Assembly: GCA_965204115.1 (NCBI GenBank)
Contig: OZ241963.1
Location: 306,489 to 370,488 of the forward strand
Source: Minisyncoccota bacterium
GTDB lineage: Bacteria; Patescibacteriota; Minisyncoccia; Phycocordibacterales; JABAAK01
Length of the DNA stretch: 64,000 nt
Direction: 5' to 3'
Each line of letters opens with the position of its first letter. The first letter of the stretch is position 1. Of this stretch, positions 1,561 through 47,332 are shown one piece after another. A program made the position numbers and the translations under genes. A model generated the notes under the pieces. The model saw nothing but the letters and a program-made list of their open reading frames with translations, ran no database searches and was not told where the DNA came from.

Positions 1561-1649
1561 CGGAGAGGGAGGGATTCGAACCCTCGGTGCGGGGTGAACC
1601 GCACACTCGTACTCCAAACGAGCGCCTTCGACCACTCAGCCACCTCTCC
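1561..1649 (-). tRNA. tRNA-Ser (anticodon GGA)
   Basis: The reverse complement gives GGAGAGGTGGCTGAGTGGTCGAAGGCGCTCGTTTGGAGTACGAG...GGTTCGAATCCCTCCCTCTCCG. It has a 7-bp acceptor stem, an anticodon stem CTCGT/ACGAG with loop TTGGAGT (anticodon GGA), a long variable arm GTGCGG-TTCACC-CCGCAC, and a T-arm GAGGG-TTCGAAT-CCCTC. No CCA is encoded. Confidence 0.85.
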
Positions 1650-1692
1650 TATACCTACACCATACCACAGGACAAGTGTCGGCTGATAGTAT

Positions 1693-3387: not shown

Positions 3388-4257
3388 CTATTCTCCCCCT
3401 TTGTTTGCAATAGATTGGAATGCTTTCAGGATTTCAACCGGGATAGCGAAGATGACGGTATTTGACTGATCGGAACTGAGGTCGTTGAGGGAATGGAGGG
3501 TGCGGAGGTGCAGCGATCCCTCTGACGCGGCAAGGATGGACGCGGCATCTGCGAGATTTTTTGAGGCAATTTTCTCACCCTCTGCCTTGATAATGACAGC
3601 GCGGCGCTCCCGCTCTGCTTCTGCCTCTCTCGCAAGAGTGCGCTTCATATCAGCCGGTAACTCAATGTGTTTCAAATCAACCGACTGCACTTTCACTCCC
3701 CATTTATCAGATGCGACATCAACAATTTTTTGTATCCGTTGCGACACCTCATCCCGCTTGGTCAGCAGCTCATCCAGCGTCACTTCGCCGACCACATCCC
3801 GCATCGTTGTCTGCGCTAATTGTGAAGTTGCCCGCGCGAAGTTCTCAACCTTCAGCACCGCCTTTTCAGCTGATTCAATATAAAAATACAGCACCGCGTT
3901 CACATTGATACTCACATTATCTTTCGTGATACAATCCTGATCCGGCACATCCACCACCTTGATACGCATATCAATAACGGTCATCTGCTGCACCCCGGGA
4001 AACACCCATCGCAGACCGGGTTGTCGCATGCCGGTATACTTTCCAAAAGTCAGTACCACCCCATTTTCATATTGATTAATGATATGCAATCCATACAGCA
4101 AAAAAGCAGTCAGTATTGCCGCCAGTACGCCGGCAACTTCGTTGGACAGCAGGCTGATTAGCAGGTAGGCAATTCCGGCACCAACTACTACAAATACCTG
4201 CCGTACAATCGCGGACTTTGCCACTTCCATACTTTGCTCTATTTCACTATCATTCAT
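3388..4257 (-). CDS. SPFH/band 7 (stomatin/prohibitin-like) membrane protein
   Basis: An N-terminal TM helix, then an SPFH core (VVLTFGKYTGMRQPGLRWVFPGVQQMTVIDMRIKVVDVP...) and a coiled-coil (REAEAERERRAVIIKAEGEKIASKN). The longest ORF extends to 4278; the likely start is MNDSEI at 4257. Confidence 0.8.
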   Translation of the reverse strand: MNDSEIEQSMEVAKSAIVRQVFVVVGAGIAYLLISLLSNEVAGVLAAILTAFLLYGLHIINQYENGVVLTFGKYTGMRQPGLRWVFPGVQQMTVIDMRIKVVDVPDQDCITKDNVSINVNAVLYFYIESAEKAVLKVENFARATSQLAQTTMRDVVGEVTLDELLTKRDEVSQRIQKIVDVASDKWGVKVQSVDLKHIELPADMKRTLAREAEAERERRAVIIKAEGEKIASKNLADAASILAASEGSLHLRTLHSLNDLSSDQSNTVIFAIPVEILKAFQSIANKGGE

Positions 4258-4295
4258 TGCTCTTAGTGTATCACACAATACATCTCACCGCCCTC

Positions 4296-5288
4296 CTACA
4301 ATACCCCAAGTATTTGTTTTACCTTTGTCAGCCGCTTAGTGAAGAGGGTGTCTAGTTTTTTTCGGTCGTGTGCCAGTATTTTTTCAAGATATTTTGTATC
4401 GTTGCTGATTTTTTCATATGTTTCCCGTGCGTCTTTGAAGTATGTGAGGTATTGCTCCGCCAGCAATTCTTTCAGTTCTTTGTAGGTGATGTCTCCCTTG
4501 CTGCAGCGATTGACCACCGTACCGTATTCCTCGCGGGGCATTATTTTTTCAAGATATGTGCACGGCAGACAGGTTTCCACATTGATCGGTTCGCCCTTTG
4601 GTGTTGAGTCGGTAACAATACTCATTATTCGTTTGCGCAGCTCTGCCTCATCGGCAAAAATCGGCAGCGTGTTCCCTTTTGACTTGCTCATCTTCTCGCC
4701 GTCTAAACCGGGGATGACTGCAACCTCTTTCTGTATCTGTTCCTGAGGTTCCGTAAAGCACACTTCACGCGCGGTGTGGTTAAATTTACGTGCCATCTCT
4801 CGTGCCATCTCCACATGCTGCGCCTGATCCTGCCCTACCGGCACCACCTCAGCGTCGGCAATTAAAATATCCGCCGCCATGAGCGCAGGGTACAGAAATA
4901 CTCCCAATCCGACATTCTGCTTTTCCTGCGCCGCATCCTTATACGCGTGCCCGATGGTCAAAAAATTATGTTTCAGCATACACGCAATGATCCACATCAA
5001 CTCGGTTACCTGCGGAAAATCCGATTGCCGATATACCATTGACTTTTTTGGATCTATCCCCAGTGCGATGCTTGCTGCGAGTAAGTGCCGGCTGTTTTTT
5101 GATCGCTCTGCGGCACTTTGCGGCGCCTGCTCATCACTTAAGTCTGTCAATGCATGCAGATCAGCGATGAAAAAATACAATTCGCCGGCATCCTGTGCCT
5201 CTACCATTTGCCGTACTGCGCCGAAATAGTTCCCTATATGCAAATCTCCCGTCGGCTGCAGCCCTGTCAAAATCCGTTTTTTAGCCAT
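4296..5288 (-). CDS. trpS: tryptophanyl-tRNA synthetase
   Basis: TGLQPTGDLHIGNY (HIGH region) and KMSKS motif; 330 aa. Confidence 0.9.
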   Translation of the reverse strand: MAKKRILTGLQPTGDLHIGNYFGAVRQMVEAQDAGELYFFIADLHALTDLSDEQAPQSAAERSKNSRHLLAASIALGIDPKKSMVYRQSDFPQVTELMWIIACMLKHNFLTIGHAYKDAAQEKQNVGLGVFLYPALMAADILIADAEVVPVGQDQAQHVEMAREMARKFNHTAREVCFTEPQEQIQKEVAVIPGLDGEKMSKSKGNTLPIFADEAELRKRIMSIVTDSTPKGEPINVETCLPCTYLEKIMPREEYGTVVNRCSKGDITYKELKELLAEQYLTYFKDARETYEKISNDTKYLEKILAHDRKKLDTLFTKRLTKVKQILGVL

Positions 5289-5297
5289 AGTGTACTC

Positions 5298-5306
5298 AGT
5301 ATACCA
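5298..5306 (-). promoter_or_regulatory. extended -10 promoter element TGGTATACT, 9 nt upstream of the trpS ATG (leaderless-type)
   Basis: Minus strand reads GGTGGTATACTGAGTACACTATG. The same motif and spacing recur at many starts in the window. Confidence 0.45.
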
Positions 5307-8155: not shown

Positions 8156-8686
8156 CTATGCTCTGTTGGTGAGTATTTCCTGCGTGTCCTCCTGCTCTTC
8201 TAATGCGGCAACTAATGCATTCAGTTTTGCCATATCCTCCTCTGACAGTGGCACCGTAGTATTCGGCACAAGTTGCTCCCCCTGCTTTTCAAACACCCAT
8301 GCCGCTGACCCCGGCGTGCCGACAGTATACCCATTTTTCGTAACAATGTGCCGAATTTCTGCCGCCGTACGGTTCTTACTGTCCGTTAGGGTGTTGATCA
8401 GTATAGCGCACCCACCCGGACCATACATCTCATAGGTTATCGCCTCCAGTGACTCCGCGTCGCTTTCACTTCCCCGTGCGATTGCCCGATCAATATTTTG
8501 TGCCGGCATGTTTGCCGCTTTTGCCTGCTCAATCGCTGACTTTAATGAAGGACTGCTCCGATCCCCGCCACATTTCTTAGACTCAACCGTCAGCAGTTTT
8601 GCCAACTTACTAAACACCTTACTCTTCTGCGCATCAGTCCCCGCTTTCTTATGCTTAATTTTTGACCACTTATTATGCCCGGCCAT
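8156..8686 (-). CDS. yebC: YebC/PmpR family DNA-binding transcriptional regulator (short form)
   Basis: MAGHNKWSKIKHKKAGTDAQKSKVFSKLAK is the family signature. The -10 TATACT sits 9 nt upstream (8696-8704). Confidence 0.85.
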   Translation of the reverse strand: MAGHNKWSKIKHKKAGTDAQKSKVFSKLAKLLTVESKKCGGDRSSPSLKSAIEQAKAANMPAQNIDRAIARGSESDAESLEAITYEMYGPGGCAILINTLTDSKNRTAAEIRHIVTKNGYTVGTPGSAAWVFEKQGEQLVPNTTVPLSEEDMAKLNALVAALEEQEDTQEILTNRA

Positions 8687-8727
8687 AGTAGTATTAGTAT
8701 ACCAATAAAACCATTTTTTGTTAGAGT

Positions 8728-9978: not shown

Positions 9979-11658
9979 TCATATCACTACACCGATAACC
10001 CGCTCAATTTCTTCCAAAGAGGTGATGCCTTTCAGCACCTTCCAGAGTGCGTCATCCTCCATAAACGGAAGCCCCTGTTTCCGCACTTCTGCGCGCAGTG
10101 TGGCAACCCCGCTCTCTTCCCGAATCACCCGCTCTATCTCATCGTTCACCTCAAACACCTCAAACACACCGATTCGCTTTTTGTATCCGTCGTTGCATTC
10201 CTGGCACTGTGGTGATGCTTCGCTTGGTCTTTTGATAGCATTTAAATCAAACTCCTCTTTATACCGCTCCGGAAATCGTTCTATCATCTGTTGTATTTTT
10301 TCTTTTTGCTCGTTCGTTAGCGGATGCTGTTCTGAGCAGACGGGGCACAGCTGCCGCACCAGTCGCTGTGCGATGACGATATTAATCGCTCGTGAAAATG
10401 CCTGCGGATCCACCTCAAACTGCAATAGTCGCGGCAGCGCGCCGAGCGCGTCGTTTGTGTGCAGGGTTGAAAATACTAAGTGTCCTGTCAATGCCGCCTG
10501 TACCGCCACCTGCGCGACTTCGGCATCACGAACCTCACCGACCAGAATAACATCCGGATCCTGCCTGAGGATGGCCCGTAGCCCTGAAGCGAACGAGTAG
10601 TCCTTATCAATTTCCGTCTGCACAATCCCCTCAAGCCGATACTCAATCGGGTCTTCCAGCGTTACGGTCTTGATATGCTCCCCTTTTACCTCGTTTAAAA
10701 ATGAGTACAGTGTCGTTGTCTTCCCCGACCCGGTCGGCCCTGTGTTCAAAATCATTCCATTCGGTCGTTTAATATGTTTCATAAATACCTCAAGTACCAC
10801 CGGATGAATTCCCAGACGCTCAATGCTATGCAGCACATTTCTCGGATCAAGGAGTCGTATGACGAATGAGCCGCCCTCGTCCTCCGGTATCACAGATGAC
10901 CGCATGCTTAATGTTCTTTTCGGAAGGTGTACCACGAAACCACCGTCCTGTGCCCCCCTTGCGGTTATTTTCATACCGGAGACCAGCTTCATCCGCGTCA
11001 CCATTTGTTTGTACTCCAGTTCATTGAGTTCGGTCATGTCGGTCAGCACTCCGTCTATGCGATACCGTATCACACCGCCCTCCTGTGCCGGCTCAATGTG
11101 TATATCAGACGCGTTTACTGCAACTGCCGTTGCCACGACATACTCTATATTTTTTGACACCCGATGCGCTCGGCTCATTTTTTTGAGCTCACGCAGCACC
11201 TCTCGCACCGCTTCAACTGATTGGATGCTTTGTATTTTTTCTTCCAGTTCTTCATTCGTGATAGACAGTGTTCCCGGCGCAGTCGCGCTTGTGGTGATGA
11301 TGTCCTTGTAGTACATCCATATTTGCTTCAGTGTTTTGGTTGATGCGAGGGTTATGGTGTGCGAGTACCCTTTTTCTTCCAACATGCGGAGTATTTCCGC
11401 CAGTTTTTCATTATTCGGCTCATTCACCGCTACCGTCAGCACCCCCTTCAGCCGCTTATACACCGCCATCTTCCCCTCCCGCGCATCAACTTCTTTCACC
11501 AATTGCAGTGCGTCAGGATTCACCTGCACATCAGTGATGCGAATTGCGGGATATTGATACTTCTTAGAAAGGTAATCCATTAACCGCTCCTCTTCCTCTT
11601 CTCGGTGCTCCCGCAAATCTTTTTGAAATTCCTGCACTGGTGCATTAACGACAGTCAT
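9979..11658 (-). CDS. pilB: type IV pilus assembly ATPase PilB/GspE family
   Basis: A T2SSE N-terminal domain, Walker A NTGPTGSGKTTTLYS, the Asp/His boxes, and a C-terminal tetracysteine CPVC...CQEC. The longest ORF runs to 11745; the likely start is MTVVNA at 11658, with TATACT -10 7 nt upstream. Confidence 0.9.
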   Translation of the reverse strand: MTVVNAPVQEFQKDLREHREEEEERLMDYLSKKYQYPAIRITDVQVNPDALQLVKEVDAREGKMAVYKRLKGVLTVAVNEPNNEKLAEILRMLEEKGYSHTITLASTKTLKQIWMYYKDIITTSATAPGTLSITNEELEEKIQSIQSVEAVREVLRELKKMSRAHRVSKNIEYVVATAVAVNASDIHIEPAQEGGVIRYRIDGVLTDMTELNELEYKQMVTRMKLVSGMKITARGAQDGGFVVHLPKRTLSMRSSVIPEDEGGSFVIRLLDPRNVLHSIERLGIHPVVLEVFMKHIKRPNGMILNTGPTGSGKTTTLYSFLNEVKGEHIKTVTLEDPIEYRLEGIVQTEIDKDYSFASGLRAILRQDPDVILVGEVRDAEVAQVAVQAALTGHLVFSTLHTNDALGALPRLLQFEVDPQAFSRAINIVIAQRLVRQLCPVCSEQHPLTNEQKEKIQQMIERFPERYKEEFDLNAIKRPSEASPQCQECNDGYKKRIGVFEVFEVNDEIERVIREESGVATLRAEVRKQGLPFMEDDALWKVLKGITSLEEIERVIGVVI

Positions 11659-11726
11659 TGCTGTCAGTATAGCATACACGCCCGTGAGGGTAACAAAGTA
11701 CAATACCGTTTGCGGCGATGAGCGGT

Positions 11727-13052
11727 CTACAGCCGAAGCATCCAAAGTGCCATATCATACTTGTTCACAAAAAAGAGGAATTCTCCATCCGGGGTGAGCT
11801 GCGGGTGTATGACATCAAAGTTCGTGTTTCTGGAAAGTATTTGAATTTCTTCCTGATTAGGTGCGAGTAACAGATCCTTTTCTCCGGTTGCGGCGTTCAC
11901 TGACACGATTACATCGTCAAAGGTGATGTCCCCCTGATACCATGAATCGGGAAATACTGTGTCATAGCCGGAAACTGTTTCAATGGGGATGGATATCGGC
12001 GCGGCACAGACAAATATGCCGTTCGCCGCATCGCACTTCTCAGGTAGTGTGATCGGGAGATCAATGGTAATACTCCGATCCCGATTGGTGATAACTGCTT
12101 TTCCGGCAAAATTATCCGCCTTTGTTTCAAACAGCATAAAATATCCCGTTGTTGCGTCCATAAACGCAGACCCGCCGGATGCGAGAGATACAAACTGTTC
12201 ATTCGGCAGCACTCCCTTCGGGTCAACGAGGTAGATGAATCCCTTCATCATGTCGGTAATCGGTGTGTGGAGGGTGATACGCGGACTGTTGCCCCAGCGT
12301 GGCAACCATGAGGCGAAATCTGACCGCCATATTACCTGTGTTTTTGATGGATTTGCCACATCAACAACAACCCCGACGGATTTGCCGTCAATCATCTGCA
12401 GAAAAAAGAGGAGGTTTTTATTATTCGTAGCAACCCGAATATTATCCTCAAACCGCTGCACGCTCGGACCGGTGCCGGTTGTAGAAAATGGTACAAACGC
12501 TGATCGCACCACGGATTCATTATCGGCACTTTCATACAGCACCAGCACTTCACCGTTCTCAAACGGATACCCTTCAATAACCCGAGTAAATTCACCGCGC
12601 GCGGTCAGTGACAGTGAGTATGGGATGGTCTGTACCAGGTATCGATTCCCCCGCCCCTGCTCAATGACCTGTGCCTCCCATGCGTCTCCTTTTTTTTCAA
12701 TGCGATACCCCGCCGTCGGGCCTTTGAACAGCCGCACTAATCGCGGTATGTTTTCTTTGTCTTCAGTACCAGGGTCACTGGTATCAGATAGCGGAGCTGT
12801 GTATACCCGATCATCCCGCCCCTTTCCGTCACTATCATCGGAAACTGAAGGATTAAAAGGTATTTCATCCGGTCTTGACACCCCAAGATTGTCCAGACCA
12901 AGCGATGGCGCTGTCGGTGCCGGTGGCCCATCGGGTGGTGGCGCGGGTGCCGGCGGCTCTGCTGAAAGATATAGGTAGATACCCGCAAACAGCAGCGCAC
13001 AAAATACCAGAAAAATAATAATGGCGATGGTGAACCGTTTTGTAGGGGTCAT
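11727..13052 (-). CDS. hypothetical membrane-anchored secreted protein with Pro-rich linker and a beta-rich C-terminal domain
   Basis: Likely start is MTPTKRF at 13052 (TATACT -10 8 nt upstream). It has a signal-anchor (IAIIIFLVFCALLFAGIYLYL), a PAPAPPPDGPPAPTAP linker and a C-terminal domain. Confidence 0.5.
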   Translation of the reverse strand: MTPTKRFTIAIIIFLVFCALLFAGIYLYLSAEPPAPAPPPDGPPAPTAPSLGLDNLGVSRPDEIPFNPSVSDDSDGKGRDDRVYTAPLSDTSDPGTEDKENIPRLVRLFKGPTAGYRIEKKGDAWEAQVIEQGRGNRYLVQTIPYSLSLTARGEFTRVIEGYPFENGEVLVLYESADNESVVRSAFVPFSTTGTGPSVQRFEDNIRVATNNKNLLFFLQMIDGKSVGVVVDVANPSKTQVIWRSDFASWLPRWGNSPRITLHTPITDMMKGFIYLVDPKGVLPNEQFVSLASGGSAFMDATTGYFMLFETKADNFAGKAVITNRDRSITIDLPITLPEKCDAANGIFVCAAPISIPIETVSGYDTVFPDSWYQGDITFDDVIVSVNAATGEKDLLLAPNQEEIQILSRNTNFDVIHPQLTPDGEFLFFVNKYDMALWMLRL

Positions 13053-13303
13053 ATATAGGTAGTATACTCCACTAGAGAATGTCTTTGCCATTCCTTATTG
13101 GTCTCTTGGATAACACCACTCCTCCAGTTCATCCTCGTTAATTGCTGGTGTGATGCAAAAAGCAGGCAAGGGGCCTTTTTCAAAGTACAGCACCGCTTCA
13201 GTGCCGGTATTAGTGTTCATCCAGTTAGTTCTTGTTGTTGTGCTATCAAGCGTTTTTCTTGTTTCGTGTTTAGAATCCACGCTGCCCCTGGTGATAGTGA
13301 GCC

Positions 13304-15409: not shown

Positions 15410-16358
15410 TTTGAGCAAATACACGAACAGGTATCTCGGCACCTTCCCCGCGGACAGAAATATCAAGCTTTCTGCCCTCCTTGAGGTGGCTTGCCTCGTT
15501 GTTCACAAACCATTTATATTGTATCGCATTTTTTTCAAAATCGGACTGACTGAAGTAAAACGGGTACACCGAAGCCGTCACTTCCTCGCTGCCGGGCGAA
15601 AGATATTCAGAAAAAACCCGATCCCGCGAGAGTCCGTATAGGAGTGTGTGAGGATACACCAGCAGCCGCGGCTCAACAATAGGCACATTGGTTACTTTTT
15701 CAAAAGAGACCCTGCCACTGCTGATGAGCGTTGCCTCTACCCGCACGATAATATAGCGGTTGAGGTAGCTCCCTCCTTTTTCATACACTACGCTGCTTGC
15801 CGCCGGACCACGCTCGTCGTGGTAGCGCGATTCAATCATCCAGCGGAATGAAAAATCTTTTTCGGTGTAAATAATACCGCTCTGATCAATATACTGCACC
15901 TTTGCTGAAAGCTTTATCGGTGTCTGTGGTCCCGCTAGCCGGTGCCCTCGATACAGCGGCGTGACAACCGAGTCCGCCTCCCAGAGAATATCAAAAACAA
16001 CCGGTCGTATCCATCGGGAAATATTGGCAAATCGCCGCTGCCCCTGTGAATCAAAGTACTGTATCCGCGCAACAACCTGTTTCGGCACGCTACCGGCAAT
16101 TTCAGTAATCTTCGTCTTGTTTGTATATGCCGCCTGTTCAATACCGTCAATCTGCCAGATAATTGAATGGATACTGGAGACAAACGACTGGTTAGAGCGA
16201 ATGGTGAAATCAACATACTCGCCCGGCGACGGGTAGGGTTCACTCACCGATATCTCATACGCGCTGTAGCTCCCCTGCTCTTGCCCGAATACTATGGGAG
16301 TCAGTAAAAAACCCGCTAACAAAACAGCATAGAGCCAAAAAAGAAATGCAATCCGCAT
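15357..16358 (-). CDS. hypothetical secreted protein
   Basis: 333 aa with an N-terminal signal peptide (MRIAFLFWLYAVLLAGFLLTPIVFGQ). TATACT -10 lies 8 nt upstream (16367-16374). Confidence 0.5.
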   Translation of the reverse strand: MRIAFLFWLYAVLLAGFLLTPIVFGQEQGSYSAYEISVSEPYPSPGEYVDFTIRSNQSFVSSIHSIIWQIDGIEQAAYTNKTKITEIAGSVPKQVVARIQYFDSQGQRRFANISRWIRPVVFDILWEADSVVTPLYRGHRLAGPQTPIKLSAKVQYIDQSGIIYTEKDFSFRWMIESRYHDERGPAASSVVYEKGGSYLNRYIIVRVEATLISSGRVSFEKVTNVPIVEPRLLVYPHTLLYGLSRDRVFSEYLSPGSEEVTASVYPFYFSQSDFEKNAIQYKWFVNNEASHLKEGRKLDISVRGEGAEIPVRVFAQNENKDLQQSDIQFTFRL

Positions 16359-16391
16359 ACAGATGTAGTATACCCCGTAAAATTACAGAAA

Positions 16392-17907: not shown

Positions 17908-18615
17908 TTATGGTTTTGCTTTTTCTACCAACACCTTTACCCGCTGCAAAAACTTGCTGTATTCATTCGCGTACGAGATGCCAATCGGTCGGTCTTTATA
18001 TACTACCACAATATACGGTGTTCCGCGGGAACCCAGCCGCCATCCCTCGTTACTGTCCCGCTCTACCCGACTCCGCACCCGCTTATCCGTTGAGATACAT
18101 TCCTGAAATTGCCGCGCGTCTGTCCCCAATGCCGCTGCCTTATTCGCCAGTGCTTTTGCATCGTTGATATCTCGCTGATTTTCATACACATACTGAATAA
18201 ACGAGAAGAATGCTTCCTCGCCGGTATGTTTCGCCACACACTCGGCGGCAACCGCCGCTTCAAATGCGGCGCCTTTTTTCTGCGGATATAGGTGCCGCGA
18301 CACCACCAGCACCCCCTCTTCGTCGACGATCTTTTTAAAGCTCTCCCGCATTGCCGCGCACATAATACAGCTTAAATCTGAATACTCAATCAGCACCACT
18401 TCCGCGTCAATATCACCCTGGGTGTGGTCAATAGACCGCACATCGGTCATGCCGATTACGGTGTGCTGTGAGTCAACCACCCCGATACCTGCTGCAATAT
18501 GTTTCAGGACCCGCACCATCGGATGTTCCACATACAACAGTACCCCCGCTACCATCACCACCGCCACACACACCACCACTATCCGCCGTACATTCATTTG
18601 TCGCACATTCTGCAT
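17908..18615 (-). CDS. second membrane-anchored DsbA-like thiol:disulfide oxidoreductase (CXXC = CIMC)
   Basis: VVLIEYSDLSCIMCAAM motif. Likely start is MQNVRQ at 18615, with TATACT -10 8 nt upstream at 18624-18629. Confidence 0.7.
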   Translation of the reverse strand: MQNVRQMNVRRIVVVCVAVVMVAGVLLYVEHPMVRVLKHIAAGIGVVDSQHTVIGMTDVRSIDHTQGDIDAEVVLIEYSDLSCIMCAAMRESFKKIVDEEGVLVVSRHLYPQKKGAAFEAAVAAECVAKHTGEEAFFSFIQYVYENQRDINDAKALANKAAALGTDARQFQECISTDKRVRSRVERDSNEGWRLGSRGTPYIVVVYKDRPIGISYANEYSKFLQRVKVLVEKAKP

Positions 18616-18798
18616 ATGCTTACAGTATATCGCTATCTGGGAGCTCTGTACTTGGTATCTGCCACAGCCACCGCACGACAAGGGATGATGATTGAGGAGA
18701 TATGAGGCAGATACTACGGCTTTTTAATAGAGGGCAATTTGAGCTGCTGAATACCCTGTAAAATGGTAAAAACCTTGATTTTACTGCCTTTCTTGGGG

Positions 18799-18827
18799 TT
18801 GACATATTGCTCCATAAATGATATAAT
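18799..18827 (+). promoter_or_regulatory. consensus sigma70-type promoter TTGACA-17nt-TATAAT
   Basis: TTGACA at 18799-18804, a 17-nt spacer, TATAAT at 18822-18827. Predicted TSS is about 18834, upstream of the protease gene. Confidence 0.6.
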
Positions 18828-18897
18828 ACATATAAGTTACGGTGCCGGGGAGGGGCATGATGCATCTAACTACATTACACCATACATACACCATATT

Positions 18898-19965
18898 ATG
18901 ATTACCACATATTCTGATTACCACACAAAGAGAAAAATTACTACGGGGCGACTGATATACCTACTTACCACTCTGGGCGTTGTTTTGCTTGTATTCCTGT
19001 TCTCAGTTGGCTACCGAGCAGTAACCGCTTACACCCAGTCCCTGCACGAACAAATTGAGGGTATTAAAACACAGCACCAAGATGAGATTGACACCCTGAT
19101 GGAGCAGCAAAAAGCGGCTGTTGAGGCAGCAGAGGAAGCGAAATGGGTTGCTACGAAAGAGGCACAAGTAGTGAAGGCGGCTATGGAGCGCGCACAAAGA
19201 GAGGTGAAAGCAGCTGCTATCACCCCTATTTCGACCGACACCAGTGTTGGCAGCAGCACAGACCTCACGGCAGCAGAGATCGAGCGATTGTCTCGTTCAA
19301 TTGTAGAAATTAAGTGTAGTCGTATGGCCGGTTCCGGCTTCCTGTTCAGAATACCGAATAAGTCTGGTGGTGTACGAAATGCCGTATTTACCAACAACCA
19401 CACTATTGAGAAGGATATGCGTGCCGGAACGCCGTCGTGTTATGTGGATAATGACTTTTTCCCGACCGCAGCACCTACTGGAGTTATTGACATCAGACCG
19501 GATAAGGATAAGATGACAGTGTTTAACCATTATGCTGACTTTGTGGCAGCAGACCTGCACTTGTTGCACGGCGATGACCGAAAGAAGCTTGACGAAAGGT
19601 ACCGCGCGGGAGAAAGGTACCTTAGCCAGCTCGATTTCTTTTCTTTGGACACGATGCCATTGTGTCCGGCCGACCACCCTACAGGGAGTGTTGTATATGC
19701 GATGGGATACCCAACATACTCACGAGGAAACATTGTCGTAGTGAAGAACAGCATTATCGGAAAAGACAACATGATCAAAAACCTTCCTCATGATGACTAT
19801 CTCACATCAGCAAGTATCGATTCTGGGATGTCCGGTGGAGCAGCTTTTTCTAAAACAAAGAACGGAGAAATCTGCCTGCTCGGCATAAACACCTGGGTAC
19901 TCAAAGGCACCTACGAAAATGTCGGTGTTATCCAGAACATCCACAACATCATGTACTCGAAATAA
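18898..19965 (+). CDS. membrane-anchored trypsin-like (S1/chymotrypsin fold) serine protease
   Basis: A TM anchor and a coiled-coil region, then a protease domain with GDSGGP-like SIDSGMSGGAAF and His region FTNNHTI. The longest ORF starts at 18763; the likely start is MITTYSDYH at 18898. Confidence 0.7.
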   Translation: MITTYSDYHTKRKITTGRLIYLLTTLGVVLLVFLFSVGYRAVTAYTQSLHEQIEGIKTQHQDEIDTLMEQQKAAVEAAEEAKWVATKEAQVVKAAMERAQREVKAAAITPISTDTSVGSSTDLTAAEIERLSRSIVEIKCSRMAGSGFLFRIPNKSGGVRNAVFTNNHTIEKDMRAGTPSCYVDNDFFPTAAPTGVIDIRPDKDKMTVFNHYADFVAADLHLLHGDDRKKLDERYRAGERYLSQLDFFSLDTMPLCPADHPTGSVVYAMGYPTYSRGNIVVVKNSIIGKDNMIKNLPHDDYLTSASIDSGMSGGAAFSKTKNGEICLLGINTWVLKGTYENVGVIQNIHNIMYSK

Positions 19966-19986
19966 GCATTTAGCTTTTCGGCAGAA

Positions 19987-20030
19987 AACAACACCACGCC
20001 CACTATAGGGCGCGGTGTTGTTTTTATTCG
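19987..20030. terminator. bidirectional rho-independent terminator between the protease gene and pilM
   Basis: A 15-bp stem AACAACACCACGCCC/GGGCGCGGTGTTGTT (1 mismatch) with loop ACTATA, followed by TTTTT on the + strand and a U-rich run on the minus strand. Confidence 0.6.
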
Positions 20031-20068
20031 TACTCTAATACTTTTTTCATCTCTTTCCTCAACCGTTA

Positions 20069-21184
20069 CTACCCCTCCAATGCCCGTAGAGCAGCGCCGA
20101 CGGCGACGGAGAATTCTGATCCGCTTTCTTTGAGGGTTTCGCTGAGGAGGGCAGGATGCCGCAGCCGTGAAAAAGGGTTTGCTATCTCAACACTGTTTTT
20201 TGTTTTTGCCTTCACCTCTTCCAGAAGTCCTTTCATAGATGCGCCGCCGCCGGTGAGTACAATCTTAGAGATGGATTGACGGTATCGCTGCTCAAAATCA
20301 ACAATCGCGTTGTTTGCTTCCGTGAAAATCTCATCAATAACTAATGACATCGCATGGCGGACTTCCTTGTCCTCTATGGTAAAGCCGAATTCCCGCTTTT
20401 TGTGTTCTGCCTCTTTGAATGATATGTCTTCCGCGCGCGCTATTGCCTGCGATATATTCTGCCCTCCTTGGTTTACGAAAAATGATCGAAGAATAATGCC
20501 GTGTTCAACGACATATAGTTTTGTGGATCGCGCCCCTATGTCGATGATGATGACCGGAAGCCCGCCATCATACACCGAGGAACGAAGTGTGCTGAATATC
20601 TCAATTTCAAAGTATTGGGTGTTTAGGGCAGTTTTCCCCAGAATGTTTTTATGTTTGATAAGTTCGTGGTTGTGAATGGCGATGAGGAGCACTTTTCGTT
20701 TTTCACTCTGTGCGATAGGTGCAATGTCATCCTCAAAAATAGGCGCGTCATCCCGTCTCAAGAGTGCCTGTGGCACTACAAACCAGTCCAGCGATACATC
20801 TTCCAATGGTACCGGGATGTATCGCTTTGCCTCAAAAGGAATGGTTTGCGCTATTTTCTCATCGGAGAGTGCCGGCACTTCAATGAGTGATATCAAGCTG
20901 GAGTGAAATGGTATGGAAACACACGCCAGCGATGCGGTTATCTTTGCTTCTTGCAGCAGCGCCGCTAATACCGTGTGCAGCACTTCTTCACCGGCGTTTG
21001 CGTGCTGTCCAATCTCAGTATCCTCCACATAGGGTCCGATTGCCAATGATCCGTAGGTCTCTAAGACGGCAACCCCTTTTTCCTGCCGCACTTGTACCAC
21101 TTTCACTGCGGATGACCCGATGTCTATCCCGACAACACTGTGCTTGCCCCTCTTTAAAAACGAAAAAACTCGTGGTATTGGCAT
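20069..21184 (-). CDS. pilM: type IV pilus assembly protein PilM (actin-like ATPase)
   Basis: VGIDIGSSAVKVVQV phosphate-1 motif, IIDIGARSTKLYVV and LTGGGA motifs; 371 aa. Confidence 0.85.
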   Translation of the reverse strand: MPIPRVFSFLKRGKHSVVGIDIGSSAVKVVQVRQEKGVAVLETYGSLAIGPYVEDTEIGQHANAGEEVLHTVLAALLQEAKITASLACVSIPFHSSLISLIEVPALSDEKIAQTIPFEAKRYIPVPLEDVSLDWFVVPQALLRRDDAPIFEDDIAPIAQSEKRKVLLIAIHNHELIKHKNILGKTALNTQYFEIEIFSTLRSSVYDGGLPVIIIDIGARSTKLYVVEHGIILRSFFVNQGGQNISQAIARAEDISFKEAEHKKREFGFTIEDKEVRHAMSLVIDEIFTEANNAIVDFEQRYRQSISKIVLTGGGASMKGLLEEVKAKTKNSVEIANPFSRLRHPALLSETLKESGSEFSVAVGAALRALEG

Positions 21185-21219
21185 TGTATTAAAAGTATTT
21201 AGGTATAGTATACAGTATA

Positions 21220-21879
21220 ATGACGGTAAAAAATTGGTTTATTGATTTTTTGGCAGCGCTATTGGAGGCGGCATTTCCGAAAAAGAAGCACAGTGTCGCT
21301 GCACAAAAACAGGGCGCTGAGGTCATTACCCGCCGGATACGGCCGACCCATCGGCGGGGACATCTTACCTTCCTGCCATATCGCGATAGTGCGGTGAAAC
21401 ACTTTTTATACGCCATAAAGTATGAACGGCACCGTGAGAGCATTACTTTGGCAGCGGATATTTTTCGGGATGCTCTGTATGAGGCAGTGCAGGAGGAGGA
21501 GACGATACATGCCATGCGTTATGCTCTCTGCACCGTGCCGGCAACATCAGAGCGGAGCGCGCACGACGGCTATAATCACCTGCACACCATCCTTGATGTG
21601 CTGTATACCCATACGCCAAATACTGAGCCCTCTCCGGAAGATAAAAGAAATCTGCTCACCTGGAATCGATCGGTCAGCAGACAAAGCTCCCTGAAAAACC
21701 GGCCGGAACGGTACCGCAATGTCAACGGCGCAATGGCTGTTACTGAGCAAATCCATCCCAATACTATCTACTTTGTTATAGATGACATTACCACTACCGG
21801 TGCCACCCTCACCGAAGCTCGCCGAACGCTCACTGCAAACGGCGCACATACGGTTATTACCCTTGCCCTCGCACATTAG
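21220..21879 (+). CDS. comFC: ComF family protein (phosphoribosyltransferase domain, ComFC-like)
   Basis: C-terminal PRTase motif FVIDDITTTGATLTEA; 219 aa. Promoter is divergent from pilM. Confidence 0.75.
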   Translation: MTVKNWFIDFLAALLEAAFPKKKHSVAAQKQGAEVITRRIRPTHRRGHLTFLPYRDSAVKHFLYAIKYERHRESITLAADIFRDALYEAVQEEETIHAMRYALCTVPATSERSAHDGYNHLHTILDVLYTHTPNTEPSPEDKRNLLTWNRSVSRQSSLKNRPERYRNVNGAMAVTEQIHPNTIYFVIDDITTTGATLTEARRTLTANGAHTVITLALAH

Positions 21880-23792: not shown

Positions 23793-24500
23793 TTAAAACT
23801 GAGTAACTAGTCGCAGATCACCGTTGTAGAGCAGGCGAATGTCGCTGATGCGATGCCGCAACATTGCGATGCGATCCACCCCCATTCCGAACGCAAAACC
23901 ACGATACTTGCCGGAATCAATACCCACCCGCGCAAGCACTTGCCGATGTACCATACCGCACCCTAACACCTCAAGCCATTTCTCATCGCTCTCCCGCTTC
24001 ATATCCACCTCTAAGCTCGGCTCCGTAAACGGAAAGAAGCTCGGCCGATACCGCACCTGCACGACATCACCGAACAGTCGCCGCAGCAGTGTGTCAAGTA
24101 TCCCTTTCATATCCGCCAAGGTTGCGTCTTCAGTAACACACAACCCCTCTATCTGATGAAACTGCACCTCATGGGTTGCGTCAGTCGCCTCGTTCCGAAA
24201 TACTTTCCCCGGCACCACCACCCGCACCGGTGGTTTATGTTTCTCCATATACCGCACCTGCACCGGTGAGGTGTGTGTCCTCATTAATTTCTCTTTTTCA
24301 CCTTTGATCCAGAAGGTGTCGTGCATTTCCCGCGCAGGATGTTCCTCAGGGATATTCAGCGCCTCAAAATTATAGTACGCCGTCTCTAATTCCGGTCCGG
24401 AAGCAACTTGATATCCAAATTCCCGAAAAATACCCACAATCTCCCCCATTATTGCTGAAATTGGGTGCATGCTCCCCTGCTTCTCCTGCCCGCTCTTCAT
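23793..24500 (-). CDS. pheS: phenylalanyl-tRNA synthetase alpha subunit (short form)
   Basis: Class II motifs: FRNEATDATHEVQFHQIEGL and GFAFGMGVDRIAML. The longest ORF runs to 24542; the likely start is MKSGQEK at 24500, with TATACT -10 8 nt upstream. Confidence 0.9.
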   Translation of the reverse strand: MKSGQEKQGSMHPISAIMGEIVGIFREFGYQVASGPELETAYYNFEALNIPEEHPAREMHDTFWIKGEKEKLMRTHTSPVQVRYMEKHKPPVRVVVPGKVFRNEATDATHEVQFHQIEGLCVTEDATLADMKGILDTLLRRLFGDVVQVRYRPSFFPFTEPSLEVDMKRESDEKWLEVLGCGMVHRQVLARVGIDSGKYRGFAFGMGVDRIAMLRHRISDIRLLYNGDLRLVTQF

Positions 24501-24553
24501 TGGTACACAGTATATCACACTCGCTTTGGACAACTGTGGCACTATACTCTCTA

Positions 24554-25021
24554 ATGGTGCTTATTCTCTTAGAAAACATCCGTAGCATGCTTAATGTCGG
24601 CGGTGTATTTAGAATTGCCGATGCGGTTGGATCTGAAAAGATATTGCTTGTCGGGTATACACCGGCACCGATAGACAGGATGGGCCGGGAAAATATGAAA
24701 CTTGCTAAAACTGCGCTTGGCGCGGAGCGATCTGTCTTGTGGCAGCGGTACGAAACCACCCCTGATGCGCTTGCCGCACATCCGGAGCATAGTCCGATAG
24801 TTGTGGAACAAACACCAACGGCGATACCATACACTGAGCACAGGGTGTCGCGCAATTCTTTGTACATTTTTGGCAGTGAGACAGACGGTGTGCAGTCGGA
24901 GACACTGGGCACTATTGCCACCCACATTCACCTCCCGATGCACGGAATGAAAGAATCACTTAATGTGACTACCGCAGCTGCGGTCATTCTGTACCACCAC
25001 CTTTTCGCTGCGCAGGTATAG
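24554..25021 (+). CDS. SpoU/TrmH family RNA 2'-O-methyltransferase
   Basis: SPOUT motifs ENIRSMLNVGGVFRIADAVG and LNVTTAAAVILY. The ORF starts at 24452 overlapping pheS; the likely start is MVLILLENIRS at 24554, with TATACT 5 nt upstream. Confidence 0.75.
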   Translation: MVLILLENIRSMLNVGGVFRIADAVGSEKILLVGYTPAPIDRMGRENMKLAKTALGAERSVLWQRYETTPDALAAHPEHSPIVVEQTPTAIPYTEHRVSRNSLYIFGSETDGVQSETLGTIATHIHLPMHGMKESLNVTTAAAVILYHHLFAAQV

Positions 25022-25024
25022 TGC

Positions 25025-26410
25025 TTATTCACCGTATCGCACGGTAACGGTTATCTTTTTCTCGTTTGCTGGCAATGTGTTGCGCCATGCAGGGAATATG
25101 GTTGGTGTTTTGTGCTGTATCACTTGCGGGTATTCATTCGTAAGGATGTCGGCAACCTCTTTGCGGTTTTTTCTGACGATGTCGCTCGTGAGCAGTTCCG
25201 TGTCAATATCCCAGGATAGCTTTGCCGTTCCGCTCAGGCGGAAACTGAACTCTGTTGAAGAGATAATTTCAAACTCATCACTTTTTTCAAGACTCATAGA
25301 TAAATCTTTTGCTTCAATGCGCGCCGGTGGCACCGTTTGTACCGGTGATGATGTGTATTTTGCCAGTAGTGCCGCAAGCTCCGTTTCTCGGAATGATATT
25401 GCATAGAGTTCCCCTTTTTCACAAATCATTTGATCTTCACACCCTTCATCTTTCTTCGTTAGCGACTCAAACTCAATAAATATTCCCTCTTCAAACACTA
25501 CCCGCTCAGACAGTGAATTGTTTGCCACTGACTGTGCTAACATATCCCGCACCTCTTTTTCTATGTTTCGGCGCAGGTGTTCCCGTATTTTTGCCGCCTC
25601 AGTCGGATCAGGGATGAAGTTCTCGCCACTGGATCCTCCGATAATTTTTTCGGTAGTGATTGCGTGGGAATCAGCAAATCCTTTATATTTTGCAAGACCG
25701 GGAATGGAGAGTCGAGTGCCTTTATTCGGCAAATTAAAGTCGTCGCCGAAATTGTCTGCCTCTATTTTTACCTCTTTACTGCCCGGTACAAATTTGCCGT
25801 TTACCGTTTTACCGCCCGGGATAACATGTGTTCCGATAAGCCGATACATCTTGCCGTTTTCGGACTGCAGCCTCGTGCGGTTGATGAGTGGATCTAAGCT
25901 TTCGCCGGAAGGGTTAGTGTTATACAGTATAACGGTCCCGGTTGCTCGTGTGTTTTGCAGCTCCCAGGTCCCTTTTTCTATTGGTGCCGTTTGTGTGGCT
26001 TCAAACACGCCGAGTCGGGAGTATGAGATATCTTTTGACTGTGCCGGCTCACGCACTGCATTGAATACGCCGTCCACAGAAACCTCAGCGGTTGAGAGCG
26101 TCAAGTCCAGTGTCGCTGTCGCAAATACTGTCGTTAAGAGAAATAGCACAGTTATCGCAACGAGGGTGAAGAAGACCGCCGCCTTTTTTCCGATGCCGGA
26201 TTTTTGCTTTCGCCTCATTTGCCTCTGCGTACCCTGCCTGCCGATACTCCGCCTTCTTACTGTTTTTACTGACTGCCGCTTCTTTGCGCCGGTTCGTTTT
26301 TGTGCTCCACGCAGATTTGACCGCTCAATGGAGCGGAGATTTTTACCTCCTTCTGCTTCATCACTCTCTTCGGATGGTTGTATTTCTTCATTCATCTCCT
26401 CTTCTTCCAT
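25025..26410 (-). CDS. hypothetical membrane-anchored protein with a basic cytoplasmic N-terminus
   Basis: 461 aa: an acidic then Arg/Lys-rich N-terminus, one TM (AAVFFTLVAITVLFLLTTVFA) and a large extracytoplasmic domain. Extended -10 TGGTATAAT lies 11 nt upstream. Confidence 0.5.
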   Translation of the reverse strand: MEEEEMNEEIQPSEESDEAEGGKNLRSIERSNLRGAQKRTGAKKRQSVKTVRRRSIGRQGTQRQMRRKQKSGIGKKAAVFFTLVAITVLFLLTTVFATATLDLTLSTAEVSVDGVFNAVREPAQSKDISYSRLGVFEATQTAPIEKGTWELQNTRATGTVILYNTNPSGESLDPLINRTRLQSENGKMYRLIGTHVIPGGKTVNGKFVPGSKEVKIEADNFGDDFNLPNKGTRLSIPGLAKYKGFADSHAITTEKIIGGSSGENFIPDPTEAAKIREHLRRNIEKEVRDMLAQSVANNSLSERVVFEEGIFIEFESLTKKDEGCEDQMICEKGELYAISFRETELAALLAKYTSSPVQTVPPARIEAKDLSMSLEKSDEFEIISSTEFSFRLSGTAKLSWDIDTELLTSDIVRKNRKEVADILTNEYPQVIQHKTPTIFPAWRNTLPANEKKITVTVRYGE

Positions 26411-26515
26411 AGATGTCTTTTATTATACCACTATACTAGTCCCCAAAAATCTGCCTGTGGAATACAGCAAAGAATGAGTCGTCGCTGCAAAAAACCCAAC
26501 AAAACGGGCTGTTTA

Positions 26516-28633
26516 CTATATATCTAGGGTGGCGTAGGTTGCGTTTTCCTGTATAAATGCCTTTCGTGGGGCGACTTCGCTACCCATCAGCATATCAAAG
26601 GTTCTGTCAGCGTTTTCAGCATCCTCTATAGACACCCGCTTCAGTACTCGGTTTTCAACATTCATCGTGGTGTCGCGCAGCTCTTCAAAATTCATTTCGC
26701 CCAATCCTTTGTACCGCTGTACCGTCACACCTGCTATCTTTGCTTCGTCTTCGCTGATGTCGGCTTTTTTCTTGCTCGCCGCTTTTGTGGTCTTTTTCTT
26801 CGTGAACTCTTCCAGCACTGCATCCCGTTCTTGATCTGAATATACATACCGCATGTCCTTCCCTTTCGCCACCTTGTATAACGGTGGTTGTGCAAAATAG
26901 ACATTACCGCTCTCAATAAGCCGCTTGAAGTGGCGGAAAAAGAGGGTTAAGAGGAGTGTGCGGATGTGTGCTCCGTCAACATCGGCATCGGTCGCGATGA
27001 TGATCTTATCGTAGCGCAATTTTTCTATATCAAATGAATCGCCGATGGAGGTTCCCAGGGCGATGGCAAGTGCTTTTATCTCCTCTGATGCCATCATCCG
27101 GTCTATACGCACCCGCTCTACATTCAGTATTTTTCCGCGCAACGGCAACACCGCTTGTGTCTTCCTGTCTCTCCCCTGTTTTGCGGTGCCGCCTGCCGAT
27201 TCTCCCTCCACAATGAAAAGCTCGGAATCCGCGCGGTTTCGTGATTGGCAGTCCGCCAGTTTGCCGGGCAGGGTCATGCCGTCAAACGCGCCTTTTCGCA
27301 GAATACTGTCCTTTACTGCGCGCGCCGCTTTTCGCGCTTGTAATGCTAATGACACCTTGGTGACGATGTTTCGCGCGTCAGCAGGGTGTTCTTCTAAAAA
27401 TGTTTTAAATGCTTTATTGAAAGCACTTTGTACTGCCGATCGCGCCTCTACGCTTCCGAGTTTTGCTTTCGTTTGTCCCTCAAATTGAATTTCCGGCAGT
27501 TTGACTGAAACAATAGCCGTGATGCCTTCCAGTGCATCATCAGCGGTAAAGTTATCAGCATCTTTGGTGAGATTCTTATCCTTCGCATAGGTGTTGACAA
27601 CTCTGGTCAGCGCGGTTTTGAAGCCGGTCACATGAGTCCCGCCTTCGGTGTTCGGGATGGTGTTTCCGAAGGCAAACAGGCGCGGGGATATGTCGTCTAC
27701 ATACTGTAAAGCAATCTCTACTCCCACATCACCGACCTGCTCCTCGGTGTAAAAAATGTTCTGATGGATGGGCTTTTGTCGGTTGTTGTGGTACCGCACG
27801 AACGAGGTGAGACCGCTGTCATAGAAAAATGAATAGGTCGGCGCTTCCGGCAGTTCCGCATGCACAAAGAGGGAATCCTCCAGGATGTTTTTTGTTTCTG
27901 CCTGCCTTGCGTCAACGATTCGGATGTGCAATGATTTTACCAAAAACGCTTGGTTGCGCATATGGTCTTTGATGCGCTTTATGTCAAACACTTCGCCGTT
28001 AAATTCAGTGGTGGTGAAAACGGACGGGTCTGCGCGAAACTGCACCACGGTTCCCTTTCTGTCTGTGGAGCCGATTTTTTTTACCTTTGCAGTCGGCTTG
28101 CCGAGGTGGTACTCCTGTTGAAATAATGTTTTTTCCCGGTGTACCCGCACCAACACCTCGGTTGATAGGGCGTTGACAACTGATACTCCGACACCGTGCA
28201 GTCCGCCTGATACCTTGTATCCGCCATCTCCGAATTTTCCTCCTGCGTGTAGGGTAGTCATGATGGTTTCAAGCGCGGATACTTTTGTCTTTGGATGGAT
28301 GTCGGTCGGGATACCCCGTCCATTGTCCGCCACCCGCACCACATCGTCAGGTAGGAGGGTGATTTCAATCTCATTCGCATGCCCCGCCATCGCCTCATCC
28401 CGCGAGTTATCAAATACTTCCCAGATGAGGTGATAGAGTCCGTCAATCCCGGTTGTTCCGATGTACATTCCGGGTCGACGGCGCACTGCCTCAAGCCCTT
28501 CGAGGACCGTGATGTCGCTGGCACTGTAGCTGCTGTCCTGCACGGTCGCCTTACTCGCTGCTTTTGCTGTCGATTTTTTAGCGGCTTTTTTAACAGATTT
28601 TTTCTTGACTGTTTTCTTCTTCGGCTTCGGCAT
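26516..28633 (-). CDS. gyrB: DNA gyrase subunit B with Lys-rich N-terminal extension
   Basis: GHKL ATPase region (LYHLIWEVFDNSRDEAMAG), the TOPRIM EGESAGG motif and PLRGKILNVE. Likely start is MPKPKKK at 28633, with TGGTATACT 9 nt upstream. Confidence 0.9.
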   Translation of the reverse strand: MPKPKKKTVKKKSVKKAAKKSTAKAASKATVQDSSYSASDITVLEGLEAVRRRPGMYIGTTGIDGLYHLIWEVFDNSRDEAMAGHANEIEITLLPDDVVRVADNGRGIPTDIHPKTKVSALETIMTTLHAGGKFGDGGYKVSGGLHGVGVSVVNALSTEVLVRVHREKTLFQQEYHLGKPTAKVKKIGSTDRKGTVVQFRADPSVFTTTEFNGEVFDIKRIKDHMRNQAFLVKSLHIRIVDARQAETKNILEDSLFVHAELPEAPTYSFFYDSGLTSFVRYHNNRQKPIHQNIFYTEEQVGDVGVEIALQYVDDISPRLFAFGNTIPNTEGGTHVTGFKTALTRVVNTYAKDKNLTKDADNFTADDALEGITAIVSVKLPEIQFEGQTKAKLGSVEARSAVQSAFNKAFKTFLEEHPADARNIVTKVSLALQARKAARAVKDSILRKGAFDGMTLPGKLADCQSRNRADSELFIVEGESAGGTAKQGRDRKTQAVLPLRGKILNVERVRIDRMMASEEIKALAIALGTSIGDSFDIEKLRYDKIIIATDADVDGAHIRTLLLTLFFRHFKRLIESGNVYFAQPPLYKVAKGKDMRYVYSDQERDAVLEEFTKKKTTKAASKKKADISEDEAKIAGVTVQRYKGLGEMNFEELRDTTMNVENRVLKRVSIEDAENADRTFDMLMGSEVAPRKAFIQENATYATLDI

Positions 28634-28663
28634 ATATAGGGGAGTATACCACACCTTTATGGC

Positions 28664-29398: not shown

Positions 29399-29487
29399 GA
29401 TTAAAGAACATTATTAATTGATTAGTGTCAGTATACCATACCAACAAACGCAGCATCTTATCCACAGGCATCAACCTCCTATAAGTG

Positions 29488-31192: not shown

Positions 31193-31209
31193 ATATCTTT
31201 TTGTAGGTT

Positions 31210-47314: not shown

Positions 47315-47332
47315 ATGTGTAATAGTATACCG

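Follow-up and report, generated by a model that had tools for sequence, protein, structure and literature searches.

A 64,000-nt stretch of contig OZ241963.1 (assembly GCA_965204115.1, positions 306,489 to 370,488; hereafter the window) carries, immediately before the start codons of most of its first-in-operon genes, a -10 promoter hexamer that is most often TATACT and commonly preceded by TG or TGG. The 64 kb contain ~40 transcription units, of which 25 are clear and five are weaker cases of a box at the start codon (~63–75%), and the modal spacer between box and start codon is 8–9 nt. These are very probably sigma-70-type extended -10 promoters positioned at start codons, such that the first cistrons of most units would be expressed from leaderless or near-leaderless mRNAs lacking Shine-Dalgarno (SD) sequences. 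The host is an ultrasmall bacterium belonging to the candidate phyla radiation (CPR, Paceibacterota), with a Kaiserbacteria-labelled genome as its nearest relative, and the data support a leaderless organization of the type designated 'group C' by GeneMarkS-2, known in actinobacteria and Deinococcus, in a lineage for which no such report was found.

The association between box and start codon is real and far beyond chance. The pattern TATACTN{5,9}ATG occurs 16 times in the window against 1.55±1.22 expected (100 dinucleotide shuffles, none of which reached 16), and TGGTATACT is present in nine copies, all on the minus strand, against 0.24 expected. TATACT is an outlier among all 4096 hexamers for a nearby downstream ATG or GTG that opens an open reading frame (ORF) of at least 150 codons; 13 of its 57 copies have such a codon within 4–12 nt, compared to an all-hexamer background of 4.5% (p = 1e-6). 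When TAYAnT boxes are tallied by distance to the candidate starts of 53 ORFs, the spacers peak at 6–9 nt, a range that accounts for 22 genes, and every other position has about one gene. The gene list derives from a crude codon-usage gene caller with trmH, rpsN, and a 76-aa ORF added by hand. Among the curated starts, 30 of the 40 that are first in an operon have the broader TAnnnT form 5–11 nt upstream, compared to 3 of the 15 internal ones (Fisher p = 4e-4); for ATGs overall the figure is 194 of 2130 (9.1%; binomial p = 2e-23). When the 35-nt regions preceding all starts were searched by expectation maximization from random 8-mer seeds, GGTATACT emerged as the motif; because the site fraction reached its upper limit (lambda 0.95), the result informs the consensus and its position, not the fraction of genes that carry it.

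An earlier note on this DNA had listed hexamers of this kind 5–11 nt before the starts of named genes, and had held that the motif should stand out from shuffled sequence and be recoverable by motif discovery. Within the window both expectations are borne out, the search above having returned a -10-like consensus, and all 14 sites that the note gave with coordinates carry a -10-like hexamer before an ATG. The comM gene, listed there with no coordinates, has TACTAT 8 nt before GTG 43146 (43144–43163, minus strand). Most of the listed hexamers are TATACT as had been described, but TGGTATAAT takes its place in the gene for a 461-aa protein and TGGTATAGT in the ABC-F gene, and the box of a pilin-like gene, placed at 41522–41527, is present with coordinates off by 1–2 nt.

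To judge by profile coordinates and cross-species alignments, the start codons named here are correct. Profiles align from or near the first residue in trpS (NF009207 positions 1–331 match residues 1–329), yebC (1–139, residues 1–137), the ABC-F gene (1–492, residues 1–484), rpsO (S15 profile 1–81, residues 7–87 of 88), xth (profile position 2 at residue 5), rplS (L19 profile 14–107, residues 17–112), and topA (Toprim profile position 2 at residue 4); the start of the pilin-like gene is fixed by an N_methyl motif at residues 6–29, and those of pnp and a xerD-like gene are likewise supported, with the model starting at residues 1–8. The profile-verified first-gene starts, which number ten to eleven, all have a TAnnnT box at a spacer of 6–9 nt, and profile coordinates also confirm box-less internal starts (ruvX, ruvC, lepA, and rpsH). 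Longest-ORF calls are over-extended in at least eight genes of the window, and the claim of the earlier note that the motif helps to choose the true start in such cases is backed by three-genome alignments at DsbA-2, pheS, gyrB, and the gene for a giant 1094-aa protein, where conservation begins at the motif-predicted ATG while the sequence upstream is diverged, with frame-breaking indels.

The window has a GC content of ~49%, and nearly all of its genes lie on the minus strand, which is the main coding strand. A search with the gyrB product yields as best match L001, labelled Candidatus Kaiserbacteria, at 90% amino-acid identity; the Candidatus Paceibacterota genomes L002 and L006 are 88% and 74% identical, and beyond these the matches are to actinobacteria and to additional CPR bacteria. 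Between its positions 16 and 40 kb the window is syntenic with L001 and L002 at 72–78% DNA identity, and L013, a near-identical strain from an ENA metagenome, reaches 9 kb past the window. The genes rpsE and rplO are direct neighbors, in this order and without a uL30 gene between them (31192–31878), which fits a CPR bacterium, uL30 being absent from CPR genomes (PMC9297842). Neither the window nor the compared loci contain rRNA genes.

In three-way alignments of start regions (window, L001, and L002) the box and the ATG are conserved islands with spacer length maintained to within 1–2 nt, while the spacer sequence and the upstream DNA have diverged, often with frame-breaking indels. The gyrB gene has TATACT in the window, L001, L002, and L006 at spacers of 9, 9, 8, and 10 nt, respectively, and TATCAT of rplS is kept in L001 and L002 at 7–8 nt although the spacer sequence varies. 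In the 9 kb of L013 outside the window, scpB (TATACT, 10 nt), a holB-like gene (TATCAT, 7 nt), and rmuC (TATACT, 8 nt) conform; one gene there is leadered with AAGGAGG, and dprA gave no clear case.

The box-at-start layout is found in the window, L013, L001, L002, L006, and L003, with 7–11 of 20–25 ORFs per 22 kb, and is lacking in four further CPR loci (L004, L005, L007, and L011; 0–3 of 13–18 ORFs) although these are AT-richer; L004, L005, and L007, at 29–32% GC, show 0–1 cases. The layout is therefore lineage-specific within the CPR. Three high-GC actinobacterial loci have none by the AT-rich pattern used, which would detect their TAnnnT boxes poorly. The low-GC Paceibacterota loci L004 and L005 have neither a -10 box at starts nor an SD peak, and so must recognize starts in yet another, third way. 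L003 (CAZTEU010000002.1) bears the title 'uncultured Gammaproteobacteria', but its gyrB shares 57% identity with the CPR gene of the window and it has the -10-at-start layout; its taxonomic label is probably wrong.

The composition of the box and the genes that it precedes point to an extended -10 promoter that lacks a -35 consensus, as the earlier note had proposed in reading it as a -10 element, rather than to a ribosome-binding site. Promoters of the extended -10 class (TGnTATAAT) in E. coli and Gram-positive bacteria do not need a -35 element and have a TG one base upstream of their hexamer. At the TG positions upstream of the hexamer in the window, T is present in 11 of 28 sites and G in 16 of 28; TGG precedes nine exact TATACT copies, G is the commonest base at positions -1, -2, and -4 of the box, and the first discriminator base after the box is a purine. 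A -35 element sought at gaps of 15–19 nt gave no conserved column between -40 and -5, and the best matches to TTGACA have 1–4 of 6 positions.

The box also precedes genes that are never translated, and because of this and its scarcity before internal cistrons it is best read as a promoter. RNase P RNA (55664–56016) has TGGTATACT ending at 56021 (promoter at 56014–56029, minus strand); the Rfam match begins at 56016 and the P1 helix begins at A 56014, the seventh nucleotide after the box, which is the canonical position for a transcription start site. The tRNA-Ser promoter (1649–1667, minus strand) has TGG-TATGGT (TGGTATGGT) at a distance of 9 nt from the mature 5′ end (1649), and a tRNA-Asp of L006 has TGCTACACT 8 nt before its mature 5′ end; for the RNase P RNA and the two tRNAs together, the box-to-5′-end distance is 4–9 nt. 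Four divergent gene pairs with starts only 35–66 nt apart (21184/21220, 24500/24554, 36936/37003, and 50458/50512) have a separate box for each gene.

A mechanism can be proposed on this basis. The promoter would be of sigma-70 type with consensus TGG-TAtACT and no recognizable -35; RNA polymerase would bind the extended -10 and begin 6–10 nt downstream, placing the transcript start on the A of the AUG or up to ~4 nt before it. Such mRNAs would have no room for an SD sequence, and ribosomes would recognize the 5′-terminal AUG by the known leaderless pathway (70S, or 30S with initiation factor IF2 and fMet-tRNA). Downstream cistrons would be reached by termination-reinitiation coupling, and a handful of small genes would instead use a promoter, a leader, and AAGGAGG. 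If the geometry of the RNase P RNA promoter, with P1 at the seventh nucleotide, applies generally, spacers of 5–11 nt predict leaders of 0–4 nt.

Four observations weigh against a simple leaderless interpretation. The spacer mode of 8–9 nt exceeds by ~2 nt the 6 nt that would place +1 on the A of the ATG, and exceeds the RNase P geometry as well; T at -1 is enriched in internal and leaderless-type starts alike, so that position -1 is perhaps within the mRNA; about six boxes are weak (AATACT, TACCCT, and TATGTT); and at ~10 first genes the start was chosen partly with the motif in mind, a circularity from which the verified subset is free. Many transcripts may thus carry 1–3 nt before the AUG. 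In a variant that builds on this, transcription starts at the seventh nucleotide after the box, the leader is 1–4 nt long and ends in U (5′-N0-3-U-AUG), and initiation proceeds through a UAUG context shared with internal cistrons rather than through a strictly 5′-terminal AUG. It would account for a spacer peak at 8–9 nt and not 6, for a pyrimidine at position 6 (26/37 promoters) and a purine at position 7 (22/37) after the box, for the start of the RNase P P1 helix at position 7, and for T at -1 in 35 of 51 starts of all classes, compared to 26% before any ATG. However, orthologous spacers vary by 1–2 nt (8, 9, 9, and 10 for gyrB) and a flexible start site at the T-A step fits equally, genes with spacers of 5–6 nt (rpsO, xth, and the xerD-like and trmH-like genes) would be strictly leaderless anyway, and leaders of ≤5 nt conventionally count as leaderless; the variant, which differs in degree and not in kind, is considered possible but rather unlikely. 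By class, T at -1 is found in 19 of 28 leaderless-type, 11 of 14 internal, and 5 of 9 leadered starts (examples are at 5289, 8155, 8687, 23791, and 28634). It was considered as a signature of the transcription start site (pyrimidine at -1, purine at +1) and rejected, because it is enriched in every start class and is as frequent before internal starts as before leaderless-type ones. The UAUG context might be an SD-independent initiation signal; Esposito et al. in 2003 are said to have reported that U at -1 can pair with A37 of initiator tRNA.

A quite different proposal makes the hexamer a ribosome-binding element of non-SD type, or a translation enhancer, within a longer leader whose transcription begins elsewhere, like the motifs of GeneMarkS-2 'group B' (Bacteroidetes-type). 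Its distance to the start is typical of ribosome-binding sites, SD sequences are missing, and some Parcubacteria have altered 16S 3′ tails (PMC9297842, PMC10783764), but this seems highly improbable given that the motif precedes untranslated RNA genes and has a TGn extension typical of -10 elements. Moreover, group B motifs precede all genes whereas this one is scarce before internal cistrons (3/15), in leadered genes the box is 25–35 nt upstream with a true SD in between, and the divergent pairs 35–66 nt apart are too close together for any other promoter to fit outside coding sequence. An artefact, whether through fortuitous hexamers in AT-rich intergenic DNA or through starts selected to match the motif, has even less claim to be the explanation. 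The higher AT content of intergenic as compared to coding DNA and the choice of some starts from several candidates speak for it, but 16 matches are observed where shuffled sequences give 1.55, the spacer histogram has a sharp peak within the very upstream regions concerned, L004, L005, and L007 show 0–1 cases although these CPR loci are AT-richer, all profile-verified starts have the box, and the box is conserved in relatives. Extended -10 promoters at start codons thus remain the preferred reading.

The SD cores GGAG, GAGG, and AGGA are flat, with no positional peak, before the candidate starts of the 53 window ORFs. The general absence of SD motifs described in the earlier note therefore stands, but its list of exceptions (2886 and 18857) was incomplete; AAGGAGG starts are also present at 50458, 50241, and 63275, and in one gene just outside the window. 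The ORFs with AAGGAG(G) 5–9 nt before the ATG are small and hypothetical (2886, 50458, 50241, 63275, and one in L013), and four of the five have a perfect AAGGAGG. Three of these heptamers are seen in the window against ~0.03 by chance (our own estimate, for 9-nt windows at 56 starts), which suggests that the anti-SD is retained in the host. Near 18860, within the 5′ part of a protease gene, there is an SD-like GGGAGG with a 13-codon ORF, corresponding to the upstream ORF of the note.

No SD core is present at 4–12 nt in 14 internal genes, among them secY and six genes for ribosomal proteins (ruvX, PBP1A, ruvC, ruvB, dsbD, pheT, secY, rplO, rpsE, rplR, rplF, rpsH, lepA, and DUF192). Their stop-to-start gaps are -17, -13, -4, 1, 1, 1, 2, 7, 10, 17, 17, 18, 21, and 21 nt, all overlapping or within the ~25 nt over which termination-reinitiation coupling is expected. 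Given the missing SD sequences and the proximity of each start to the stop codon before it, such coupling is the most likely mode of translation for these cistrons.

Several leadered genes have the box 25–35 nt upstream of the start with an SD between box and ATG. A 67-aa ORF (50466–50488, minus strand) has TGGTATACT at 50488–50480 and AAGGAGG at 50472–50466, 7 nt before ATG 50458, and a 76-aa ORF that follows as second cistron (50239–50256, minus strand) has AAGGAGG at 50256–50250, 8 nt before ATG 50241. This two-gene operon (50011–50488, minus strand) has no Pfam match, lies between the xerD-like recombinase gene and xth, and may be an acquired module. A 114-aa ORF (63273–63323, minus strand) has GTG-TATACT (63320–63315) and AAGGAGG (63287–63281) 5 nt before ATG 63275, and a rightwards-transcribed 133-aa ORF (2847–2888) has TATACT at 2847–2852 and AAGGAG 9 nt before ATG 2886. 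Other leadered genes have no SD, including DUF4013, DsbA-1, and a 242-aa gene (29390–29438, minus strand) with TGGTATACT at 29438–29430 and a ~30-nt leader before ATG 29392, its box being kept in L001 and L002. In murJ (55576–55602, minus strand) TGGTATACT is 15 nt from ATG 55578, with a predicted leader of ~8–9 nt. The ribosomal-protein operon rpsN–secY (33198–33574, minus strand) has TGC-TATACT (TGCTATACT) at 33574–33566 and a ~90-nt leader before rpsN ATG 33469; the rpsN stop overlaps the rpsH start (TAATG at 33202–33198), and the downstream cistrons of the operon lack SD sequences. This leader (33469–33574) is unusually long for the window genome, and could hold an autoregulatory structure.

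The genes with a box at the start codon are mostly transcribed leftwards. On the minus strand, spacers of 9 nt are found for trpS (5286–5306; TGG-TATACT, ATG 5288), yebC (8684–8704; TGG-TATACT, ATG 8686), gyrB (28631–28651; TGG-TATACT, ATG 28633), the 1094-aa protein (36934–36954; TATACT, ATG 36936; conserved in L001), pnp (47312–47332; CGG-TATACT, ATG 47314), and msrB (56918–56938; TGG-TATAGT, ATG 56920). The spacer is 8 nt for a 441-aa protein (13050–13069; TATACT, ATG 13052), a 333-aa protein (16356–16375; GGG-TATACT, ATG 16358), whose box is kept in L002 with a spacer of 9 nt, and DsbA-2 (18613–18632; TATACT, ATG 18615), for which box, spacer, and ATG are the same in L001 and L002 while the upstream sequence has diverged. 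Spacers of 7 nt occur at pilB (11656–11674; TGC-TATACT, ATG 11658), which an independent call in L013 likewise makes 559 aa long, the ABC-F gene (58522–58540; TGG-TATAGT, ATG 58524), a gene for an SPFH protein (4255–4273; TGA-TACACT, ATG 4257; the same 289 aa in the L013 gene call), and a 272-aa protein (39347–39365, ATG 39349) with a weak box, TACCCT, where L002 has TACCAT at equal spacing. A gene for a class II aminoacyl-tRNA synthetase (1209–1254) has TATTAT 7 nt before ATG 1211 and a second box, TGGTATACT, at 1254–1246.

Shorter and longer spacers are also represented on the minus strand. The pilin-like 692-aa gene (41512–41529) has TGA-TACTAT (41526–41521) 6 nt before ATG 41514, with GATACT at a spacer of 8 nt as an alternative box, and rpsO (48252–48269) has GTG-TATACT 6 nt before ATG 48254; the spacer is 11 nt for the 461-aa protein (26408–26430; TGG-TATAAT, ATG 26410), where box and spacer are the same in L001 and L002, and for a 609-aa protein (45038–45060; TATCAT, ATG 45040). 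The 148-nt gap between rpsO and an NYN-domain gene contains a further minus-strand TATACT 9 nt before the ATG of a 26-codon ORF (47933–47950); either this small ORF is leaderless or the box is the promoter for a leader of ~100 nt. Rightwards-transcribed genes with a box are rplS (36987–37005; TGC-TATCAT, 7 nt, ATG 37003), the xerD-like recombinase gene (49115–49132; TATACT, 6 nt, GTG 49130), xth (50497–50514; GTG-TATACT, 6 nt, ATG 50512), and topA (63369–63389; TATTAT, 9 nt, ATG 63387). Two of the divergent pairs have both boxes in a short intergenic region: at 21182–21222 leftwards pilM (AATACT, 9 nt, ATG 21184) and a rightwards 219-aa gene (TATAGT, 10 nt, ATG 21220) start 35 nt apart, in a block conserved in its entirety in L001 and L002, and at 24498–24556 are leftwards pheS (TGA-TATACT, 8 nt, ATG 24500) and the rightwards trmH-like gene (TATACT, 5 nt, ATG 24554).

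Among known systems, the closest is GeneMarkS-2 group C, in which a Pribnow box lies ~6–10 nt before first-gene starts and is absent before internal genes; it comprises mainly Actinobacteria (90%) and Deinococcus-Thermus (97%), with 25–50% of transcripts leaderless (PMC6028130), and group C genomes using code 11 are almost all high-GC (bioRxiv 10.1101/2022.07.25.500264). As in group C (Mycobacterium tuberculosis, Streptomyces, Corynebacterium, and Deinococcus deserti), TAnnnT lies just upstream of first-gene starts with no -35, starts are nearly always ATG or GTG, and there is a second, leadered gene class (PMC6028130). The window shares with it the position of the box, its specificity for first genes, and the substantial share of units, but not SD sequences at internal and leadered genes; group C uses SD ribosome-binding sites at internal cistrons, where the window has none. 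It further differs in its lineage (CPR/Paceibacterota), its GC content of about one half, a stronger, near-invariant TATACT box (often TGGTATACT), a spacer mode of 8–9 rather than 6–8 nt, and a share of units of ~63–75% rather than 25–50%.

Other comparisons are more distant. Archaeal 'group D' (Haloferax, Halobacterium, and Sulfolobus) is similar in having a leaderless majority (60–80%) and a promoter fixed relative to the start, but there the TATA box and B recognition element lie ~22–26 nt upstream and are used by an archaeal polymerase, whereas the window has a bacterial -10 at 5–11 nt. The TGn form and lack of a -35 are common to the window and the extended -10 promoters of E. coli and Gram-positive bacteria, although in the window this is apparently the default type and is positioned at the start codon. 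Part of the Parcubacteria lack the CCUCC anti-SD (PMC9297842; PMC10783764, which names Campbellbacteria, Wolfebacteria, and Yanofskybacteria), with the replacement of SD not stated, and these papers report SD-independent translation initiation in such related CPR lineages. Most window genes similarly have no SD signal, but those papers concern the rRNA side, whereas the window shows a promoter-at-start layout and five small ORFs keep AAGGAG(G). Bacteroidetes group B (Flavobacterium johnsoniae) likewise lacks SD motifs and depends on start-codon context (PMC6847099), but its motif is found before all genes, internal ones included, and on a leader, whereas that of the window is a first-gene motif that occurs before RNA genes as well.

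A non-exhaustive full-text literature search found no paper describing leaderless architecture in the CPR, although automated annotation with GeneMarkS-2 may already model the layout silently. A broader proposal, to which we give somewhat less than even chances, is that a Paceibacterota clade (the window, L001, L002, L006, and probably L003) is almost wholly SD-independent, with two-thirds to three-quarters of units leaderless or with 1–3 nt leaders, internal reinitiation at U(-1)AUG, and a geometry shared with tRNA and RNase P promoters, and that this is not found in other CPR (two low-GC Paceibacterota loci and Saccharibacteria). If true, this would be the highest leaderless share suggested for any bacterium, comparable to haloarchaea, and would supply the missing mRNA-side explanation for initiation in Parcubacteria with reduced ribosomes and an altered or lost anti-SD.

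The CPR (Patescibacteria) are a large and mostly uncultured part of bacterial diversity with reduced ribosomes, and the promoter-at-start layout offers a concrete and testable answer, for one clade, to how start codons are found. It would add to the list of leaderless-rich bacteria a lineage beyond Actinobacteria and Deinococcus-Thermus. It could also be used to correct start annotation, to predict which gene finders mis-call starts in such genomes, and to design minimal promoter and expression cassettes (TGGTATACT, 6–9 nt, ATG) for emerging Patescibacteria genetic tools.

Several window genes are unusual in other respects. The yebC gene (8156–8686; 176 aa) matches profile positions 1–139 of 245, and pheS (23793–24500; 235 aa) is missing ~58 N-terminal profile positions, both being shortened versions of conserved proteins. 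A rightwards-transcribed gene for a trypsin-like protease (18634–20067, 400 aa) is missing from L001 and L002, in which DsbA-2 and pilM are directly adjacent, and looks like a strain-specific insertion. Four large ORFs have no NCBIfam match: 1094 aa (33652–36936), 1398 aa (58584–62780), 609 aa (43211–45040), and 461 aa (25025–26410); two of the four were also scanned against Pfam, with no match. The 1094-aa protein is only ~40% identical in L001, where neighboring genes are 70–90% identical.

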